A stretch of 58,567 bases of DNA, taken from a phage. Each line of letters starts with the position of its first letter. The first letter of the stretch is position 1. Shown in pieces: positions 1,572 to 50,374 of this stretch. The stretch lies in the sequence record PZ445423.1, one strand, 5' to 3'. A program made the translations under genes and the position numbers. Below the pieces are notes generated by a model. The model did no database searches, was not told the origin of the DNA, and saw nothing but the letters and a program-made list of their open reading frames with translations.

Positions 1572-3068
1572 ATGGGTATTGATGCAACTCACCCGCTATA
1601 TGACAAGTGGAAGGACGCATGGGTTAAGTGCAACGACTGCTATGAGGGTGAAGATAAAATTAAGGAAGAAGGTGTTAAATATCTACCACCTTTAGCTTCC
1701 ATGATTATTGATGGGATGAATAATCCTAATGATTTGGGCTTTCAACGTTGGCTCGCTTATCGTCTGCGTGCTAACTTCCCTGACGATTATTCAAGTGCGG
1801 TTACAAACAATTTAGGTCTGCTACACCAGAAGCCTCCTACAATCCAGCTCCCACCTGAAATGGAATACATGCGGGAGCTGTGTACTGCGGACGGTGAAGA
1901 CATTATTGCTCTGCTACGTCGCATCAATGAAATGCAGTTAAAAAATGGACGTTTGGGCCTGCTGCTGGATTTGCCGAAAGGTGAGGATGTAAATAACAGA
2001 CCTTATATTAGCGTTTATGATGCTTTATCCATTATCAACTGGGGTGATGGTAAAGATGAATTGGGTAATATCAACTTGAACATGGTTGTTCTGGATGAAA
2101 GCGGTCCTGTACGTGTCAATCAGTTTGACTGGAAAGAAGAGAAGCGTTATCGCGTTCTACAATTAGGTCCAATGGACACAGATGAAGTAGCAGGTGGAGC
2201 GGTCTACTCCCAACATCTGTTTATTAACAATACCAATTATGATGAAGGGCAAATGATTGCTCCTTATTATAAAGGTAATACGCTGGATGAAATTCCTTTC
2301 CAGTTTGTCAATACAACAGATATTACCCCAGCACCGGAAGCGCCGCCATTGTTGGGTCTTGCTAACATTTGTCTAAGCATGTACCGAAGTGACGCGGATT
2401 ACCGCCAATGCTTGCATATGCAGGGTCAGGATACTTTAGTTGTTGTTGGTGGTTCCATGGAAAATGGAGATAAAGCCCCTCAGCGTATTGGTCCTGGTGC
2501 AGTCATTAACGTTTCTCAGGGGGGTGACGCTAAATATGTAGGTGTTAGCGGTGACGGTTTGTCCGAGCAACGTCTCGCACTGGCAGCGGATAAGCAGGAA
2601 GCCCAAATTAAAGCCGGGCAAATGGTAAACAATACCAAGAGTACGCAGGAATCAGGCGAAGCTATGAAAACGCGTATTGCTGCGCGTACAGCTAGTTTGA
2701 TTCGGATTGCGTATACTGGTGCGGCTGGTCTGGAAAACTTGCTGAAGGTTTGCGCTAAGTGGATGGGCGCTGATCCCGAGAAAGTTGTGGTCAAGCCTAA
2801 TCTTGAATTTACCAAGAGCATGTTTAACGGTCAGGACTTTGTTCAAATTATTACTGCACGCAACCTTAAGGCTCCGATCAGTTTGCAGTCTATTCATGGC
2901 TGGCTTGTTGATCAGGGCTTAACCACACTAAGCTTTGAAGAAGAAATGGCAATTCTTGAAGAAGAGCTTAAGAAGTGGCCTCTGCCCGATGATGCTAAAG
3001 CTGATTTAAACGCAGAGCAGCAAGTAAGCAAAGATCCTAAGGAAGACGACGCTTCCGATAAAGAATAG
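1572..3068 (+). CDS. portal protein (putative)
   Basis: 498-aa ORF directly after terL, with SD GGAGGG before the ATG and an acidic C-terminal tail; assigned by size and position. Confidence 0.55.
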   Translation: MGIDATHPLYDKWKDAWVKCNDCYEGEDKIKEEGVKYLPPLASMIIDGMNNPNDLGFQRWLAYRLRANFPDDYSSAVTNNLGLLHQKPPTIQLPPEMEYMRELCTADGEDIIALLRRINEMQLKNGRLGLLLDLPKGEDVNNRPYISVYDALSIINWGDGKDELGNINLNMVVLDESGPVRVNQFDWKEEKRYRVLQLGPMDTDEVAGGAVYSQHLFINNTNYDEGQMIAPYYKGNTLDEIPFQFVNTTDITPAPEAPPLLGLANICLSMYRSDADYRQCLHMQGQDTLVVVGGSMENGDKAPQRIGPGAVINVSQGGDAKYVGVSGDGLSEQRLALAADKQEAQIKAGQMVNNTKSTQESGEAMKTRIAARTASLIRIAYTGAAGLENLLKVCAKWMGADPEKVVVKPNLEFTKSMFNGQDFVQIITARNLKAPISLQSIHGWLVDQGLTTLSFEEEMAILEEELKKWPLPDDAKADLNAEQQVSKDPKEDDASDKE

Positions 3069-3163
3069 TTGCAACTTCCAAGTTGATTGGTTTATATTAA
3101 CGAACACGGGGCTGGGACGGCTCAGCTCCAAAAACGTCACACGGGTGACAACGGAGATAAGAA

Positions 3164-4036
3164 ATGAAAAAGAGTTCTGTAGCTATTAGTGTTGGTATGG
3201 CTTTAATTAATCCACGCGCTCGCGGTGAAGGTGATGTGGAACTGGAATACGAATATGCATCTGCGGAAGAGATCCCGGCAGAGTTTGCAACTCTTTACGC
3301 AGAGCAGGGCGGTAAATACGTTCTTGCAAAAGTTAAAGGTGTAGCCCCTGCTGATAGCGTTCGTCGTCTGGAAAGTGCATTAGCAAAAGAACGTAACGAC
3401 CATCGCCAGGTGAAGCAACAGATTAGCGCACTTGGGCGTCCGGTTGAAGAAGTCCTTGCGGACCTTGATCGTATCCCTCAACTGGAAGCTGCCGCTAACG
3501 GTAAAGGTACTCCGGAAGACATCGAAAAGATGGTTAAAGCCCGTCTTGCTCCGCTCGAGCGTCAATTGCAAACTGTAGCAGCTGAACGCGATTCCGTTAA
3601 GCAGGAAATTGAAGGCTACCGCACTCGCGAAACTAAAGCGAAGATTAAAGACGCAGTTATTGCTGCTGCATCCGGTGCTAAGCTGCGTCCGTCTGCTATC
3701 GAAGATGCGGTGACTTATGCACAGTTGCAAATGACCGTCGACGAGAACGGCAATGTGGTTACGAAAGATGGGGCTGGTGTAACTCCATACCTAACTCCAG
3801 CGGATTGGCTTAACGAGATCCTCCCGAAACGTCCTCACTGGGTTGAGGGTTCTGCTGGTGGCGGTGCGTCTGGTCCGGGCGCTGGCGGCCATCACGGTGA
3901 AGACCCATACAGTCACGACGGTTGGAACATCTCTAAGCAGATGAATCTCTGGAAAACTAATCAATCTTTAGCTAAACGCTTAGCTGAAAAGAATGGCGTA
4001 GACCCGCTGAAGCCTGTACGTCCTGCTAAGAAATAA
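3164..4036 (+). CDS. scaffolding protein (putative)
   Basis: 290-aa charged, coiled-coil-like ORF between portal and capsid genes, with a Gly-rich C-terminus; positional call. Confidence 0.45.
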   Translation: MKKSSVAISVGMALINPRARGEGDVELEYEYASAEEIPAEFATLYAEQGGKYVLAKVKGVAPADSVRRLESALAKERNDHRQVKQQISALGRPVEEVLADLDRIPQLEAAANGKGTPEDIEKMVKARLAPLERQLQTVAAERDSVKQEIEGYRTRETKAKIKDAVIAAASGAKLRPSAIEDAVTYAQLQMTVDENGNVVTKDGAGVTPYLTPADWLNEILPKRPHWVEGSAGGGASGPGAGGHHGEDPYSHDGWNISKQMNLWKTNQSLAKRLAEKNGVDPLKPVRPAKK

Positions 4037-32180: not shown

Positions 32181-32385
32181 TTACTTCACCTTTAATATCA
32201 CAAGGGTTGATTGTTACGTTAGACATCACAATTGGATGATTGCGAGCTCCAATTGTGCTAACGTGATTAATATCTAATTCTACATGCACGCCCTGCATAG
32301 TAGCGTGAGCAATTGCAGAATTAAGTTTTTCTACCAGTTCAGTGATCATTTCCTGATGCTGTTTCGCTTCTTCCAAAGTGATCAT
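32173..32385 (-). CDS. small protein, paralog of the downstream ORF
   Basis: 70 aa; start overlaps the queE stop (TAATG) and stop overlaps the next ORF start. Confidence 0.5.
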   Translation of the reverse strand: MITLEEAKQHQEMITELVEKLNSAIAHATMQGVHVELDINHVSTIGARNHPIVMSNVTINPCDIKGEVNE

Positions 32386-33092
32386 TATTCCACCCCGATA
32401 TATTTGTGAACCTGAAGCTGCAACGTGTAACCGTATTTCATACAGCTTTGGACAACGGCTTGGATATTACTGTGGTTAAGGTCTTCATCCTGCTCGTCCA
32501 TTGGCTGTAAATATATCTTACCCTTGAAACCCTTCGGAGGTCTAGCGATAAATGGCGTAGCTTGATGATCTAATGCCTGAAGCGGCAAACCATCTTCCAC
32601 GTTTACACAGCACGCTTTAAGTACATATTTAAATGCATTAGCGCGGCGCAGCACAGAAGGATGAATCTTTGAGGTCTTGGGGCTACATACAATTACAGGT
32701 AACTGGGAAAAGTTCTTAGGTAAAGGCATAGACCCATTAGTTTCAATTTGCACCAAATAGCCGCGCGATAACAGTTGTTCAATAAACGGGTTAATTTGCT
32801 GACGGAACGGTTCACCCCCAGTGATAACCACAAGTGAGGTGCTATTGCCTGATTCCAGCTTACGGCTTTCGATTAAACGCATAATATCGACAATATGATA
32901 AAGACTACGACCAACAGTATAATCGGTATCACAGCCAGGGCATTGCAGATTACACCCAGCAAGACGCACAAATACAGCAGGTTGGCCGCAGAATGGACCT
33001 TCACCCTGAATGGTAGAGAATACCGAATGCACGTCTAAATACATATCGTTTTCTTTAGAACGGGACTCGGGAGCTTGTTGATTAATATTCAT
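32385..33092 (-). CDS. queE: 7-carboxy-7-deazaguanine synthase (radical SAM)
   Basis: 235 aa with CNLQCPGC cysteine motif and Gly-rich SAM region VVITGGEPF; SD AGAGGA. Confidence 0.85.
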   Translation of the reverse strand: MNINQQAPESRSKENDMYLDVHSVFSTIQGEGPFCGQPAVFVRLAGCNLQCPGCDTDYTVGRSLYHIVDIMRLIESRKLESGNSTSLVVITGGEPFRQQINPFIEQLLSRGYLVQIETNGSMPLPKNFSQLPVIVCSPKTSKIHPSVLRRANAFKYVLKACCVNVEDGLPLQALDHQATPFIARPPKGFKGKIYLQPMDEQDEDLNHSNIQAVVQSCMKYGYTLQLQVHKYIGVE

Positions 33093-33161
33093 CTTAAATC
33101 CTCTAGTGAAAAAGAAAGCGCCTCATTGGGCGCTTTCATTATAACGTGATATGTTTTGATA

Positions 33162-33965
33162 TTACAAGCCGTTCAGGGCTTCCGGTACTGGCATAGGTAC
33201 GCGACCAGTTACACCATTAAACTTCTTCCAACGTGCATACTGAGTTTTAACGGTATCTTCGTTCAGACCGTGGCGACCTGCCAGATTCAGAACATAAGAG
33301 ATTGGAGCAGGCTGACCCAGCGTAGCGCTAATCTGATCCATCAGGGCCCAGGCACGACCGCAGGAAGTTTCAGGTTGCGGACGACGAACACCATTCTGTT
33401 CAGGCATACGGTTCGCTTCTTTCGCTTTTTCACGTTCAGCTTTTTCGCGGGCTTTTTCAGCAGCCTTTTCAGCCTGTTTAGCAGCGCGGATCTTGTCTTT
33501 GAAGCCTTTGATAGACGAATCCAGTTCGTCAACCATGCTCTGAGCAGCAGTTACTGCACCGGACAGATCTTCACCTTTGGATTTTTTAACAACTGCTTTC
33601 AGCTCTTTCAGAGCATTCTTTAAATGCTTCAGCTGTTCAGAACCCTTAGATTCTGCTTCCGTGATCTGATCAACAGTGCTTTCATCGGTAATACCGGATA
33701 AAGCAAACTTCACGGTTTCAACTGCCTGAGAAAGAGCGGTAAATTTATTTTCCGCTTCAGTACGAATTTCAGCTTGTTTCTTTTCAGCGGCAGCTTTTTT
33801 CTCTGCTTCTTTTTTCTCTTTTGCTACGCGTGCAGCTTCAGCGGCAGCGGCTTTTTTAGCTTCTGCATCGTTAGCAGTAGCTTCTTTCTTTGCAGGCTTA
33901 GCAGATTTTGCAGCGGCAGCAGCGGCTGCGGCAGCAGCGGCTTTCTTATCTTCAATATTACTCAT
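33162..33965 (-). CDS. Ala/Lys-rich histone H1-like protein with a globular C-terminal domain
   Basis: About 267 aa from the ATG at 33965 (SD GGAG; track start is GTG); long AAAAAAAAAAAKSAKPAKK / KKAAAE low-complexity run. Confidence 0.5.
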   Translation of the reverse strand: MSNIEDKKAAAAAAAAAAAKSAKPAKKEATANDAEAKKAAAAEAARVAKEKKEAEKKAAAEKKQAEIRTEAENKFTALSQAVETVKFALSGITDESTVDQITEAESKGSEQLKHLKNALKELKAVVKKSKGEDLSGAVTAAQSMVDELDSSIKGFKDKIRAAKQAEKAAEKAREKAEREKAKEANRMPEQNGVRRPQPETSCGRAWALMDQISATLGQPAPISYVLNLAGRHGLNEDTVKTQYARWKKFNGVTGRVPMPVPEALNGL

Positions 33966-34092
33966 TTTCTTCACTCCGAATTATTATGGGTTCGTTTGTT
34001 ACCAACGGGGTTAAATGTACCAAAGGATTTTGTGACACGCAACCCCTTACATAAACATTTTTAAAAATATTTTTGATCAGGGTTAGAACTTA

Positions 34093-34587
34093 TTAGCTCT
34101 TCGCACCTCTGCCCGGTGTCCATGCTGCTTGCAATGCGTGTTGCTCACAAATGACCCTGGCACCGGAAATAATACCACCCTCCCGTTCAGCATCGTATTT
34201 GACACGGGCAGGTTTCCAAAGTCCTTCATCCATTGACGGAACGTATTGCCCAATTTGAGGTGAGCAAAAGCCTTGGATATCGTATTCCACACAGAATTCG
34301 GCTTGTGCTCTGATTTGGGCGTGATCCAGGATCGTTTCTGGAAGTTGCGTAAAGTAATCAGACAAAATGCGCTCAACGATTTCCCGTTCATATGGTGCAG
34401 CTCCTAAGTTTTCTGTCAGATTAATATAAAGCATTTGAAGATCAACATCTTCAAGATCTTTTAAATCGTTTACTGGTGTTACCAGTGTTGACTCTGGACA
34501 ACAGATAATTCCAAGTTGGTGTAATGTCAACCAATTGGGATGCTTTGCCAAGAGTTCAAATTTATCTGTATCAATTAGGACGTACAT
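34093..34587 (-). CDS. hypothetical acidic protein
   Basis: 164-aa ORF with SD AGGGGA. Confidence 0.4.
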   Translation of the reverse strand: MYVLIDTDKFELLAKHPNWLTLHQLGIICCPESTLVTPVNDLKDLEDVDLQMLYINLTENLGAAPYEREIVERILSDYFTQLPETILDHAQIRAQAEFCVEYDIQGFCSPQIGQYVPSMDEGLWKPARVKYDAEREGGIISGARVICEQHALQAAWTPGRGAKS

Positions 34588-37598: not shown

Positions 37599-38483
37599 TT
37601 ACTGCTGCCACGGCGGGACTGCTGCTTGTGCCGGATGCGGTTCAGCTTGCTGCTGTGGCTGAGCTTGCTGCTGAGGCGCTGCTGCCTGGCCCGGCTGCGC
37701 TACCTGCTGCGCCCACGGCTGCTGAGCTGCTTCCGGTGCTACTGGCTGTTGTACCGGAGCTTGCTGCACTGGCTGCTGTGGTGCTGCGTTTTGAGCAGGA
37801 TTATCCCACGGCTGCGGTGCGGCATTCTGCCACGGTTGTGCTGCTGCGCCCTGCTGTGGTGCTGGTTGCTGCACTGGCTGCTGAACTGGTTGCTGTTGCT
37901 GCACCGGAGCTTGCTGCTGTACAGGCGCTTGCTGTTGCTGTGCAAACGGGTTAGCTGCTGGTTGCTGAGGTGCTGCGCCCGGGAAAGCTGGCTGCTGTGC
38001 TGGCGCACCTGCACCGAACGGGTTAGCTACTGCCGCTTGAGCACCCATTGCTGGAGCACCTGCTTCTTTTTCTGCATACTTAACCGGATCGTTGATGTTA
38101 GCATAACCGTTAGGCTCGTTGCTGTCTTCATAACCTTCCTGAGAACGAACTTTCAGACGCAGGTTCAGCGGAATGTTATGCAGTTGAGAAGGAGTATCCC
38201 AGCGAATTACGCCAACCGCATGGGAAAGCGCGCCCAGTTGTTCGTATGCGATACGCACAGTATCTTCGTTGTCGTTGATAACGTTGTAACGAGCAAAGAT
38301 TTTACGACCTTTAGCAAAACCATCAATGATGCTAAACGTTACCTGGATCGCCATACCGCCATTTTTGGTCGGTTTAAATTCAGATGCTTCAATTACTGCT
38401 TTATACCAACCTTTCGGCAATGCGCCGTAAGAAGGTGCTTGATAGCTGCTCGCGTCAAAGTGGAAATTAGTTGGCATAGTCAT
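37599..38483 (-). CDS. DUF669-like ssDNA-binding protein with Gln/Pro/Ala-rich tail
   Basis: 294 aa; globular N-terminal ~140 aa followed by a long low-complexity tail (QQQAPVQQQAPVQQQQPVQQ...); coupled to the ATPase gene. Confidence 0.55.
   Translation of the reverse strand: MTMPTNFHFDASSYQAPSYGALPKGWYKAVIEASEFKPTKNGGMAIQVTFSIIDGFAKGRKIFARYNVINDNEDTVRIAYEQLGALSHAVGVIRWDTPSQLHNIPLNLRLKVRSQEGYEDSNEPNGYANINDPVKYAEKEAGAPAMGAQAAVANPFGAGAPAQQPAFPGAAPQQPAANPFAQQQQAPVQQQAPVQQQQPVQQPVQQPAPQQGAAAQPWQNAAPQPWDNPAQNAAPQQPVQQAPVQQPVAPEAAQQPWAQQVAQPGQAAAPQQQAQPQQQAEPHPAQAAVPPWQQ
37610..38000. repeat. low-complexity CTGCTG/GGCTGC-type DNA repeats
   Basis: Degenerate tandem triplet repeats encoding the Q/P/A tail; the complementary strand gives a spurious 317-aa ORF. 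Confidence 0.6.
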
Positions 38484-49686: not shown

Positions 49687-50301
49687 TTATGCGTCCAGTC
49701 CGTTGTATTTTCGCCAGGCGTAGAACTGAATGGCGACAGTTGTTCCGTTGTAAGAAGGCATTGCTGCTTTCATTTCTTTCAGCTCGGGGGTACGACCCAG
49801 CTCACTTAAAAGTTTGTCACCCATTGCCCACACTTCGGCAGTTTTTCCTTTGAGCGGCTTGCGAGCGCCATTTTTGAAATCACAGCGAGCAGCTTTTGCA
49901 TCCTGTTTTGGCGCGGCAGCTTTTGGCTCTTCAATTTTGATTTCAGAAACCTGCGTGGCAGCTTTTGCGTGTTTCATATCTTTCTCTTCCTCCTGCTCCA
50001 GAGCTTCGAGGCAGCTTTTGACAATTTCCGGATTTACCATCGGGCGCAGTACCGAGACGCTGGCAGCTGGCGCGGCGGTCGGTGCCGGGACTTTCTGCTC
50101 CGGCTGTTGCGCTTTTTTATGGTCGCGCAGCACCTGAAGCACTTCCTTTTCGATGATGTAAAAACCAATATCGTCCTGATGGATTAACTGTTCGTGTGCA
50201 TCGCGTGCAACCTGGCCCCAGCGGGTCTTAAGGGCGCGGCGTGCATTCGTTTTCATGGTGTAACGCATTTTGTCCTGTTCGCGGTGAGTTACTTTAGACA
50301 T
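49687..50301 (-). CDS. hypothetical protein with Ala/Pro/Lys-rich linker
   Basis: About 204 aa from the ATG at 50301 (SD AGGAG). Confidence 0.45.
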   Translation of the reverse strand: MSKVTHREQDKMRYTMKTNARRALKTRWGQVARDAHEQLIHQDDIGFYIIEKEVLQVLRDHKKAQQPEQKVPAPTAAPAASVSVLRPMVNPEIVKSCLEALEQEEEKDMKHAKAATQVSEIKIEEPKAAAPKQDAKAARCDFKNGARKPLKGKTAEVWAMGDKLLSELGRTPELKEMKAAMPSYNGTTVAIQFYAWRKYNGLDA

Positions 50302-50374
50302 GGTATAGCTCCTTTCGTTAATGTTAGTTTGCTTATTACTGCCCACCGTAATGATGAGCAGTGTATAAGAAAAC

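Follow-up and report, generated by a model that had tools for sequence, protein, structure and literature searches.

What is the function of an alanine- and lysine-rich protein whose gene lies beside the genes for 7-deazaguanine modification of phage DNA? The question arises from an open reading frame (ORF) in phage sequence record PZ445423.1 (58,567 nucleotides [nt]; this whole stretch is referred to below as the window), which encodes a homolog of gp46 of the Seuratvirus CAjan. A preliminary description of the locus had likened the product to histone H1, proposing that it binds DNA nonspecifically and might package or mark modified DNA or coat host DNA. Our computational analyses point elsewhere, and we assign a probability of about 0.4 to a nonvirion, probably abundant DNA-binding accessory of the cassette for DpdA (7-deazaguanine) modification and replication.

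The gp46 homolog is a real, constrained gene on the minus strand. Its ATG occupies positions 33965 to 33963 and its stop codon positions 33164 to 33162, with a Shine-Dalgarno sequence (GGAG, 33977 to 33974) situated 8 nt ahead of the start. About 30 Seuratvirus genomes (Queuovirinae; CAjan, Seurat, slur01, SA80RD, and others) match this region at 92 to 98% DNA identity, and the gene is kept in all relatives, with protein identities of 84 to 100% across 34 Seuratvirus-like records. Residues 161 to 267 are under purifying selection (ratio of nonsynonymous to synonymous divergence [dN/dS] of 0.00 to 0.09). The ORF, its Shine-Dalgarno sequence, its homologs, and this selection together bear out a protein of 267 amino acids (aa), as originally called (~267 aa). 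Two overlapping plus-strand ORFs (33156-33623 and 33774-34064) were rejected as antisense artifacts of the repeat-rich coding strand, since homology and dN/dS favor the minus frame. The protein matches two profiles, PHROG 11298 (E = 1.6e-121) and PHROG 18634 (E = 3e-29), both annotated "unknown function," and its GenBank names in relatives vary ("transcriptional activator FtrA domain-containing protein," "putative transcriptional activator," "plectin 1," "outer capsid protein," or hypothetical), none of them backed by a profile match. Literature searches found no functional work on CAjan gp46 or its homologs.

The module that defines the family is the C-terminal domain, as it is the only part shared by all members, whereas the Ala/Lys/Glu helix recurs but varies in length, side, and presence. 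That this end of the protein is globular had been anticipated, and AlphaFold2 agrees, with predicted local distance difference test (pLDDT) scores of 80 to 93 for residues 186 to 267 across models. The domain comprises a beta-hairpin arm (MPEQNGVRRP), three helices, and a G-x-x-G-R tail; modeled by itself, it is a short beta-hairpin (E-Q-N-G-V-R) followed by three helices, with a pLDDT of 80 overall and 87 to 93 in the core. It can be seen in the alignments themselves that helix 2, the turn, and helix 3 have the canonical A-x3-G-x5-V spacing (A229, G233, and V239, which are A49, G53, and V59 in alignment A1, where the helices span positions 21 to 36, 42 to 51, and 56 to 69), matching the signature of a tri-helical helix-turn-helix (HTH) unit. 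At least 90% of 83 sequences have G53 and N55 of that alignment, and the invariant positions are the P, N, and P of the arm (MPEQNGVRRPKP), a Trp in helix 1, the Y and W of helix 3 (EYARWRKF), and the G-R that follows. The net charge of the domain averages +3.9 over 255 family members, and Arg or Lys is conserved in the arm, the recognition helix, and the tail. From the HTH motif, the positive charge, and the occurrence of the domain in tandem arrays, we reasonably infer that it is probably an HTH DNA-binding unit. The earlier assignment to a DNA-binding class is therefore plausible, but the likely DNA-binding element is this domain and not the Ala/Lys-rich composition. Some structural neighbors of the domain bind proteins through the same fold. 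Beyond low-complexity noise, no relative was found in Pfam (no match to the C-terminal domain at E ≤ 1), NCBIfam, or the PDB (phmmer and profile searches), and Foldseek searches of BFVD returned only uncharacterized family members.

The domain occurs in a large family of variable architecture. A search of 5.8 billion proteins yielded 228 matches, with enterobacterial relatives of 250 to 296 aa; beyond these, most matches are 155 to 220 aa long and have in common only the last ~75 residues (50 to 68% identity), ahead of which stands an Ala/Lys/Glu-rich stretch whose length varies. Searching 1.84 billion representatives exhaustively with a profile of the domain-only alignment recovered 1,952 clusters (defined at 50% identity) at E ≤ 1e-3, 844 of them at E ≤ 1e-10. 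Of 261 sequences, 224 have the domain at the C terminus, 24 have it internally, 4 have it at the N terminus ahead of an Ala/Lys/Glu tail, 3 consist of it alone, and 6 carry two or three tandem copies linked by Ala/Lys/Glu helices. The tail is dispensable within the family, some members being only 89 to 105 aa long. Stringent patterns for close relatives, scanned against 185,579 species genomes, gave six matches, all in metagenome-assembled genomes and four on contigs of 56 to 57 kb; we read these as mis-binned phage contigs and the family as phage restricted.

The N-terminal part of the protein, on which the likeness to histone H1 was founded, has the expected composition over only some of its length. 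The poly-Ala run is present (11 Ala at residues 9 to 19) and is followed by KKAAAAE- and EKKAAAEKK-type repeats, in accordance with the KKAAAE-type repeats first described. Low complexity is confined, however, to residues 1 to 70 and 161 to 185 and is of the Ala/Lys/Glu type, so that the supposed Ala/Lys-rich half is neither continuous nor free of acids. Residues 1 to 70 contain 41% A, 21% K, and 14% E, with one Pro and 17 K+R to 12 D+E (net charge, +5); residues 1 to 185 hold 39 basic (K+R) and 33 acidic (D+E) residues (net charge, +6); and the whole protein is 20.6% A, 13.9% K, and 10.9% E, with an isoelectric point (pI) of 9.4. Pooled over 248 family members, the regions flanking the domain average 31% A, 22% K+R, 19% D+E, and 1.6% P, with a net charge of +0.03 per residue. 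The full-length AlphaFold2 model, built on an alignment of 27 full-length relatives (mean pLDDT, 81.5), places helices at residues 32 to 90, 98 to 128, and 132 to 184 (pLDDT, 70 to 90), and residues 71 to 160 together with the flanking Ala/Lys/Glu helices are predicted to form a spectrin-repeat-like three-helix bundle.

H1-type tails are strongly cationic, contain Pro, are nearly free of acids, and are disordered. Those of histone H1, Chlamydia Hc1, Pseudomonas AlgP, and mycobacterial Hlp/HupB resemble gp46 in their Ala/Lys-enriched repeats, but in gp46 the acids nearly equal the bases, Pro amounts to ~1.5%, and helices are predicted with confidence. Because its acids nearly balance its bases, helix is predicted, and residues 71 to 160 are a helical segment of ordinary complexity, the region is, as modeled, a near-neutral helical polyampholyte unlike the H1-type polycationic tail, and the prediction is of long helices rather than a disordered tail.

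Residues 71 to 160, which occur only in the enterobacterial versions (Seuratvirus, Nonagvirus, and Vid5-like), are hypervariable among otherwise near-identical Seuratviruses, with 70 to 78% identity versus 93 to 100% elsewhere in the gene. Relative to slur01 (L006), this segment has 24 nonsynonymous and 4 synonymous differences (dN/dS of 1.84), compared with 0 and 4 in residues 161 to 267, all of these being small counts. The variability could reflect diversifying selection or a recombination patch.

The association of the gene with DNA modification genes, which had been noted from their proximity in the window, is upheld by comparative genomics in the form of synteny, co-occurrence, and co-loss with DpdA. 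In the window, the gene belongs to a minus-strand block that runs through a ligase, Sak4, a DUF669 protein, a Cas4-like exonuclease, a superfamily 2 (SF2) helicase, gp47, gp46, and QueE and continues downstream of QueE with two small ORFs, QueC, YhhQ, and, after further genes, QueD and FolE and then DpdA, the clamp, and the polymerase. We collected 80 loci from IMG/VR with a close profile and 75 more with a divergent profile, assessing those with enough flanking sequence. The order SF2 helicase, zero to three small ORFs, domain gene, and QueE is kept in ~160 of 161 loci, locus L168 being the sole one to break it, and DpdA and the clamp come 3 to 6 kb downstream. The arrangement reaches beyond the Queuovirinae to a Rhizobium Kleczkowskavirus, a 95-kb Achromobacter phage, BcepGomr, a Synechococcus phage, and a 42-kb Stenotrophomonas phage whose homolog has only 105 aa. 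A contig from Logan (SRR24750923, L097) encodes a three-tandem-domain protein (2280-3170) followed by a 78-aa ORF, a DpdA homolog, the clamp, and PolA. Its domain protein is two genes before DpdA and no preQ0-synthesis genes are present, making this a DpdA-only variant of the cassette that keeps the domain.

The incidence of the domain in phage database records follows that of DpdA in Gram-negative hosts. The domain was detected in 149 records, DpdA in 224, and the helicase backbone in 614 (e.g., Pseudomonas, 98; Salmonella, 51; Stenotrophomonas, 24). Domain and DpdA records are equally numerous in eight Gram-negative host groups, namely Escherichia (40), Pseudomonas (31), Vibrio (23), Enterobacteria (8), Providencia (4), Salmonella (3), Klebsiella (3), and Stenotrophomonas (3), and differ by a single record in Rhizobium (13 versus 14). 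The 56 mycobacteriophage DpdA records in this database include none of the domain matches. Some of the listed dpdA genes of mycobacteriophages and Gordonia phages are at the genome end and adjoin a gene for a ParB-like or HTH protein, which suggests that actinophage DpdA has a different DNA-binding neighbor. Four phages that have the backbone but neither DpdA nor Que genes (Pseudomonas C1, Klebsiella Kmi2C, Xanthomonas Pfeifenkraut, and Stenotrophomonas Yut4) also lack the domain gene, and in a rough neighbor-joining tree of the helicase they are nested among DpdA-plus lineages, which suggests at least two correlated losses of the domain gene and DpdA. The notion of a recent cassette insertion or deletion between close relatives was ruled out, as the helicases of Bhz54 and C1 are just 52% identical. 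Taken together, these patterns suggest that, in the large Gram-negative lineage with this cassette, the domain gene and the DpdA cassette are coupled in evolution with hardly an exception, the association being near-exclusive though not absolute.

The sequences that flank the gene suggest how it is expressed (Table 1). The preliminary description placed it immediately upstream of queE (32385..33092, minus strand); the two genes are indeed separated by a gap of only 69 nt, but a terminator-like hairpin and a promoter-like site lie between them. The SA80RD record annotates a matching promoter and terminator pair. In a survey of dereplicated loci drawn from L003 to L176, 62 of 109 loci (57%) have such a hairpin no more than 110 nt past the domain gene, and the same test was positive after neighboring genes in 6 of 109 cases for the helicase, 6 of 103 for QueE, 1 of 81 for DpdA, and 0 of 75 for the clamp. 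The predicted hairpin is in this respect a conserved putative boundary of transcription units, with the recombination genes on one side and the modification-plus-polymerase genes on the other, and the promoter-like site presumably drives the queE operon. A transcript from this site would begin inside the left arm of the hairpin, and the layout resembles a compact insulator, in which read-through from gp46 would stop and the operon's own transcripts, lacking the full left arm, would enter queE.

The leader upstream of the gene is nearly invariant in five Seuratviruses whose synonymous sites have diverged by 0.3 to 0.7. Its 45-nt core (~33999-34043; GGGGTTGCGTGTCACAAAATCCTTTGGTACATTTAACCCC) is invariant in the same number of Seuratviruses and forms a hairpin, the region having a minimum free energy of -28.3 kcal/mol (z = -2.26), and it could be a regulatory element or a structure of the 5' untranslated region. 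The SA80RD record annotates a "terminator" at this core. A candidate promoter further upstream (TTGCGT-17-TACATT) has 7 of 12 consensus matches and was set aside, the scanner not having called it. These features indicate that the gp46 homolog is probably a separately controlled transcription unit and, with the strong Shine-Dalgarno sequence, suggest that its expression may be high.

Table 1. Features of the gp46 locus and of the second domain-bearing gene, in window coordinates.
Feature	Coordinates	Strand	Basis or remark
Coding sequence, 267 aa + stop	33162..33965	minus	Homolog of CAjan gp46 (Seuratvirus genome)
Residues 1-70, Ala/Lys/Glu-rich, low complexity, predicted helical from residue 32	33756..33965	minus	Composition, AlphaFold2
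Residues 71-160, ordinary complexity, acidic (pI 5.9), helical (predicted)	33486..33755	minus	AlphaFold2, composition
Residues 161-185, second Ala/Lys/Glu/Arg-rich helical stretch (predicted), joining the C-terminal domain	33411..33485	minus	Composition, AlphaFold2
Residues 186-267, conserved C-terminal domain, family-defining	33165..33410	minus	Alignments, AlphaFold2
Intrinsic-terminator-like hairpin, 9-bp stem with 6 G-C pairs, then T-run	33114..33137	minus	25 nt past the stop codon
Sigma-70-like promoter site, TTGTAA-18-TATAAT, 10/12 matches	33138..33167	minus	Overlaps the stop codon, abuts the hairpin
Intergenic leader upstream of the gp46 homolog, 127 nt	33966..34092	minus	Comparison, folding
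gp47 homolog, 164 aa, PHROG 7864, upstream neighbor	34093..34587	minus	Profile match
Second gene ending in a divergent domain copy (KNGARKP...VW...FYAWRKYNG)	49687..50346	minus	Domain hidden Markov model, 24.7 bits

The upstream neighbor, gp47, is also connected to the domain. The PHROG 7864 profile includes the domain at positions 177 to 241, and the gp47 homolog in the window covers only positions 1 to 163 of this profile. Fusions of a gp47-like N terminus, an Ala/Lys/Glu linker, and the domain are found in P0108, P0189, P0196, and P0257 and probably in P0167 and P0201, a Rosetta-stone hint that gp47 is likely a functional partner of gp46. About half of the related loci possess a second, more divergent copy of the domain, which lies 1.2 to 1.5 kb upstream and forms the C terminus of a gp47-type protein. 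A second gene with the domain is found in the window itself, in the early region and well away from the Que cluster, with a product of 219 aa from a GTG codon or 204 aa from the first ATG; its equivalent in phage Iggy is gp77. Searches returned no Pfam, NCBIfam, or PDB relative of gp47, and a PDB search with the second paralog likewise gave none. The attachment of a single domain to several different N-terminal modules in the same phage is as expected of a targeting module.

Virion composition further constrains the role of the protein. Liquid chromatography-tandem mass spectrometry of virions did not report the protein in Pantoea phage Vid5 (PMC6266253) or in Alteromonas phage R7M (PMC8265664), both of which carry a homolog. 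Judged from these two phages rather than from the phage in question, gp46 is probably a nonvirion protein, which disfavors the idea that it packages modified DNA in virions.

How might such a protein act? In the mechanism that we propose, the three-helix HTH unit, with its basic beta-hairpin arm (NGVRRPKP) and G-x-x-G-R tail, would contact duplex DNA, and the Ala/Lys/Glu helices and spectrin-like bundle would provide a rigid spacer or a self-association module, without polycationic condensing. The protein would work with gp47 on intracellular, replicating phage DNA, where it may either organize or mark DNA for postreplicative modification by DpdA or handle DNA that is already modified.

Several observations weigh against an accessory role in modification. 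In E. coli, phage 9g's DpdA plus its Gat-QueC alone modify 9 to 18% of the G in a plasmid (PMC6884629); since these two proteins suffice, transglycosylation does not depend on gp46. A divergent family member comes directly after the helicase in Salmonella phage BP63 (Rosemountvirus), yet neither DpdA nor QueE is present in the 51.2 of 52.4 kb that were scanned; a strict one-to-one dependence on DpdA was dropped because this phage keeps a member without DpdA. The L168 member sits in an unrelated context, among small early-type ORFs. No iterons were seen near the gene in a direct-repeat search of the whole window, and when 102 dereplicated intergenic regions between gp46 and queE were compared by k-mers for an operator in common, only subgroup-specific words emerged, which are probably a coding or lineage signal. 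The proposed abundance is read solely from sequence signals, and the co-occurrence is confounded by the common ancestry of one replication module: helicase identity among the compared lineages is 40 to 60%, and with lineages so distant, and a helicase tree that is rough, shared descent stays a confounder.

The BP63 member (gp59; L178, 10980-11447) has the reversed architecture, with the domain N-terminal and an Ala/Lys/Glu tail C-terminal, and the slot between helicase and clamp in this phage is filled by genes for a pyrophosphohydrolase and a thymidylate synthase. The repeats that the direct-repeat search did recover are the coding Ala/Lys/Glu repeats of residues 1 to 70 (family D3) and a Gln/Ala repeat elsewhere, at 37627-37935, where seven imperfect 45-nt direct repeats (GCTGCTG/TTGCTGC-rich) lie within the homolog of CAjan gp50 (a DUF669 protein resembling single-stranded DNA-binding proteins) and, read on the coding (minus) strand, would be expected to specify a low-complexity segment rich in Gln and Ala.

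The best-surviving alternative is that gp46 is a cassette-specific transcription factor, whose HTH binds an operator at the promoter of the queE-queC-queD-folE-dpdA-clamp-polymerase operon, turning it on or off, and which travels with the cassette as its regulator. Such a role accords with the position of the gene immediately upstream of the operon, from which a terminator and a promoter separate it, with the loss of the gene along with the cassette, and with the HTH signature. The inverted repeat of the terminator extends over the predicted start site and could also serve as an operator. We nevertheless hold this role to be unlikely: the intergenic regions yielded no conserved operator-like motif; long Ala/Lys/Glu rods, two or three tandem domains, and several paralogs per genome are unusual for a simple operon regulator; and the position of the gene relative to the cluster differs in L097 and in Synechococcus phage Ssp-JY38. 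Nor does the GenBank label of FtrA transcriptional activator lend support, as the AraC-type HTH and DJ-1/PfpI-like domains of an FtrA/AraC-type activator are absent from the Pfam and NCBIfam matches.

Alternatively, the winged-helix-like domain could be a protein-protein adaptor that binds a conserved partner rather than DNA (the SF2 helicase, the clamp, DpdA, gp47, or a host hub) and delivers varied N-terminal modules to it. It would explain why a single genome or lineage has the domain joined to three or more different N-terminal modules, and the hypervariable middle region fits an interaction surface in an arms race. The classic A-G-V spacing of the HTH, the consistently positive charge with its conserved Arg and Lys residues, and the tandem arrays, which are more typical of nucleic-acid binders, render an adaptor unlikely.

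The association with DpdA might also reflect common descent, the gene being a conserved component or hitchhiker of an ancestral Cas4-exonuclease/helicase/clamp/polymerase module. It would then be unconnected with modification and perhaps mediate replication or recombination. One module type is common to all loci, the terminator parts the gene from queE and leaves it transcriptionally on the helicase side, and both the BP63 member and the activity of DpdA in E. coli without gp46 are in keeping with this explanation. But the gene is likewise missing from several lineages that have the backbone and no DpdA, so that the replication module functions without it, and the per-genus counts of domain and DpdA match although the helicase backbone is four times more widespread; independence from modification is thus improbable.

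The original proposal of an H1-like protein, whose tail binds DNA nonspecifically and condenses or packages phage or host DNA, draws on the abundant Ala and Lys, the poly-Ala run, the overall pI, and the pairing of a winged-helix globular domain with a basic tail in eukaryotic H1, but it is very improbable, failing on the near-neutral composition of the tail, its predicted stable helices and three-helix bundle, its dispensability in the shortest members, and the two virion proteomes.

As a putative DNA-binding accessory, gp46 resembles several known systems but belongs to none of them. The closest in design is KfrA of IncP plasmids (KfrA_N, PF11740), which has an HTH DNA-binding domain and a long, Ala-rich, alpha-helical coiled-coil tail. 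Like KfrA, the gp46 family tethers a small HTH unit to a long helical rod of Ala and charged residues that possibly self-associates; this is a resemblance and not membership, as the order is reversed (in gp46 the rod is N-terminal and the HTH C-terminal), the setting is a lytic phage rather than plasmid partition, and no sequence similarity is detectable, Pfam searches at E ≤ 1 giving no KfrA_N match. The domain differs from the winged helix-turn-helix proteins ArsR, Fur, MecI, and HxlR, from RecX repeats, and from the C-terminal winged helix of MCM in that its hairpin ("wing") is N-terminal to the helices; this hairpin bears the invariant N-G-x-x-x-P motif, and the domain belongs to no existing sequence family. 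Spectrin and plakin repeats, ER/K-type charged single helices, and TolA domain II resemble gp46 in fold and composition only (7 to 12% identity), and gp46 has no membrane anchor or cytoskeletal context; this resemblance explains the spurious "plectin 1" of GenBank. The DpdB/ParB-like partners of DpdA in bacterial dpd islands and actinophages are, like gp46, putative DNA-binding proteins beside a DNA transglycosylase cluster. Unlike them, gp46 shows no ParB or sulfiredoxin domain and no ATPase motif in Pfam or NCBIfam searches, and a partner of the DpdB type would be required for DpdA activity, whereas 9g DpdA acts without gp46.

In a further interpretation, which we regard as quite unlikely, the domain would serve as a "reader" of DNA that contains 7-deazaguanine, or else would recruit DpdA to DNA that has just been replicated. 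The 7-substituent sits in the major groove of DNA, where the recognition helix of an HTH also binds, and phage T4 offers an analogy in that it discriminates templates through cytosine modification. If the domain were a reader, gp46, the gp47-type fusions, and the protein encoded at 49687-50346 could tell phage from host DNA and deliver different activities to it, and this would be the first protein domain known to recognize dPreQ0/dG+ DNA outside restriction systems.

The ORF itself was already in GenBank, as hypothetical or misnamed, and the fold class and the design of an HTH plus a helical rod are known. What appears to be new is the recognition of the domain family, with its size and HTH signature, the finding that it occurs almost exclusively with DpdA cassettes and is lost along with them, and the conserved terminator. 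The analysis also corrects several misleading GenBank names ("FtrA transcriptional activator," "plectin 1," and "outer capsid protein"). Tools for testing the role of gp46 already exist in deletion mutants of CAjan made with clustered regularly interspaced short palindromic repeats (CRISPR) and in unmodified DNA from dpdA-minus phage, such as the CAjan dpdA deletion mutant (Kot et al. 2020, PMC7544227); wild-type CAjan DNA contains dPreQ0.

Modification of phage DNA by 7-deazaguanines is currently described in terms of five or six enzymes: FolE, QueD, QueE, QueC or Gat-QueC, DpdA, and sometimes YhhQ. Our results add a nonenzymatic gene that travels with this cassette almost without exception in a large Gram-negative lineage and that represents an unannotated, HTH-like family of about 2,000 clusters. 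If its product binds DNA, and especially if it discriminates modified DNA or tunes DpdA, it would be a missing component of the system and could explain how such phages come to replace 25 to 30% of G.

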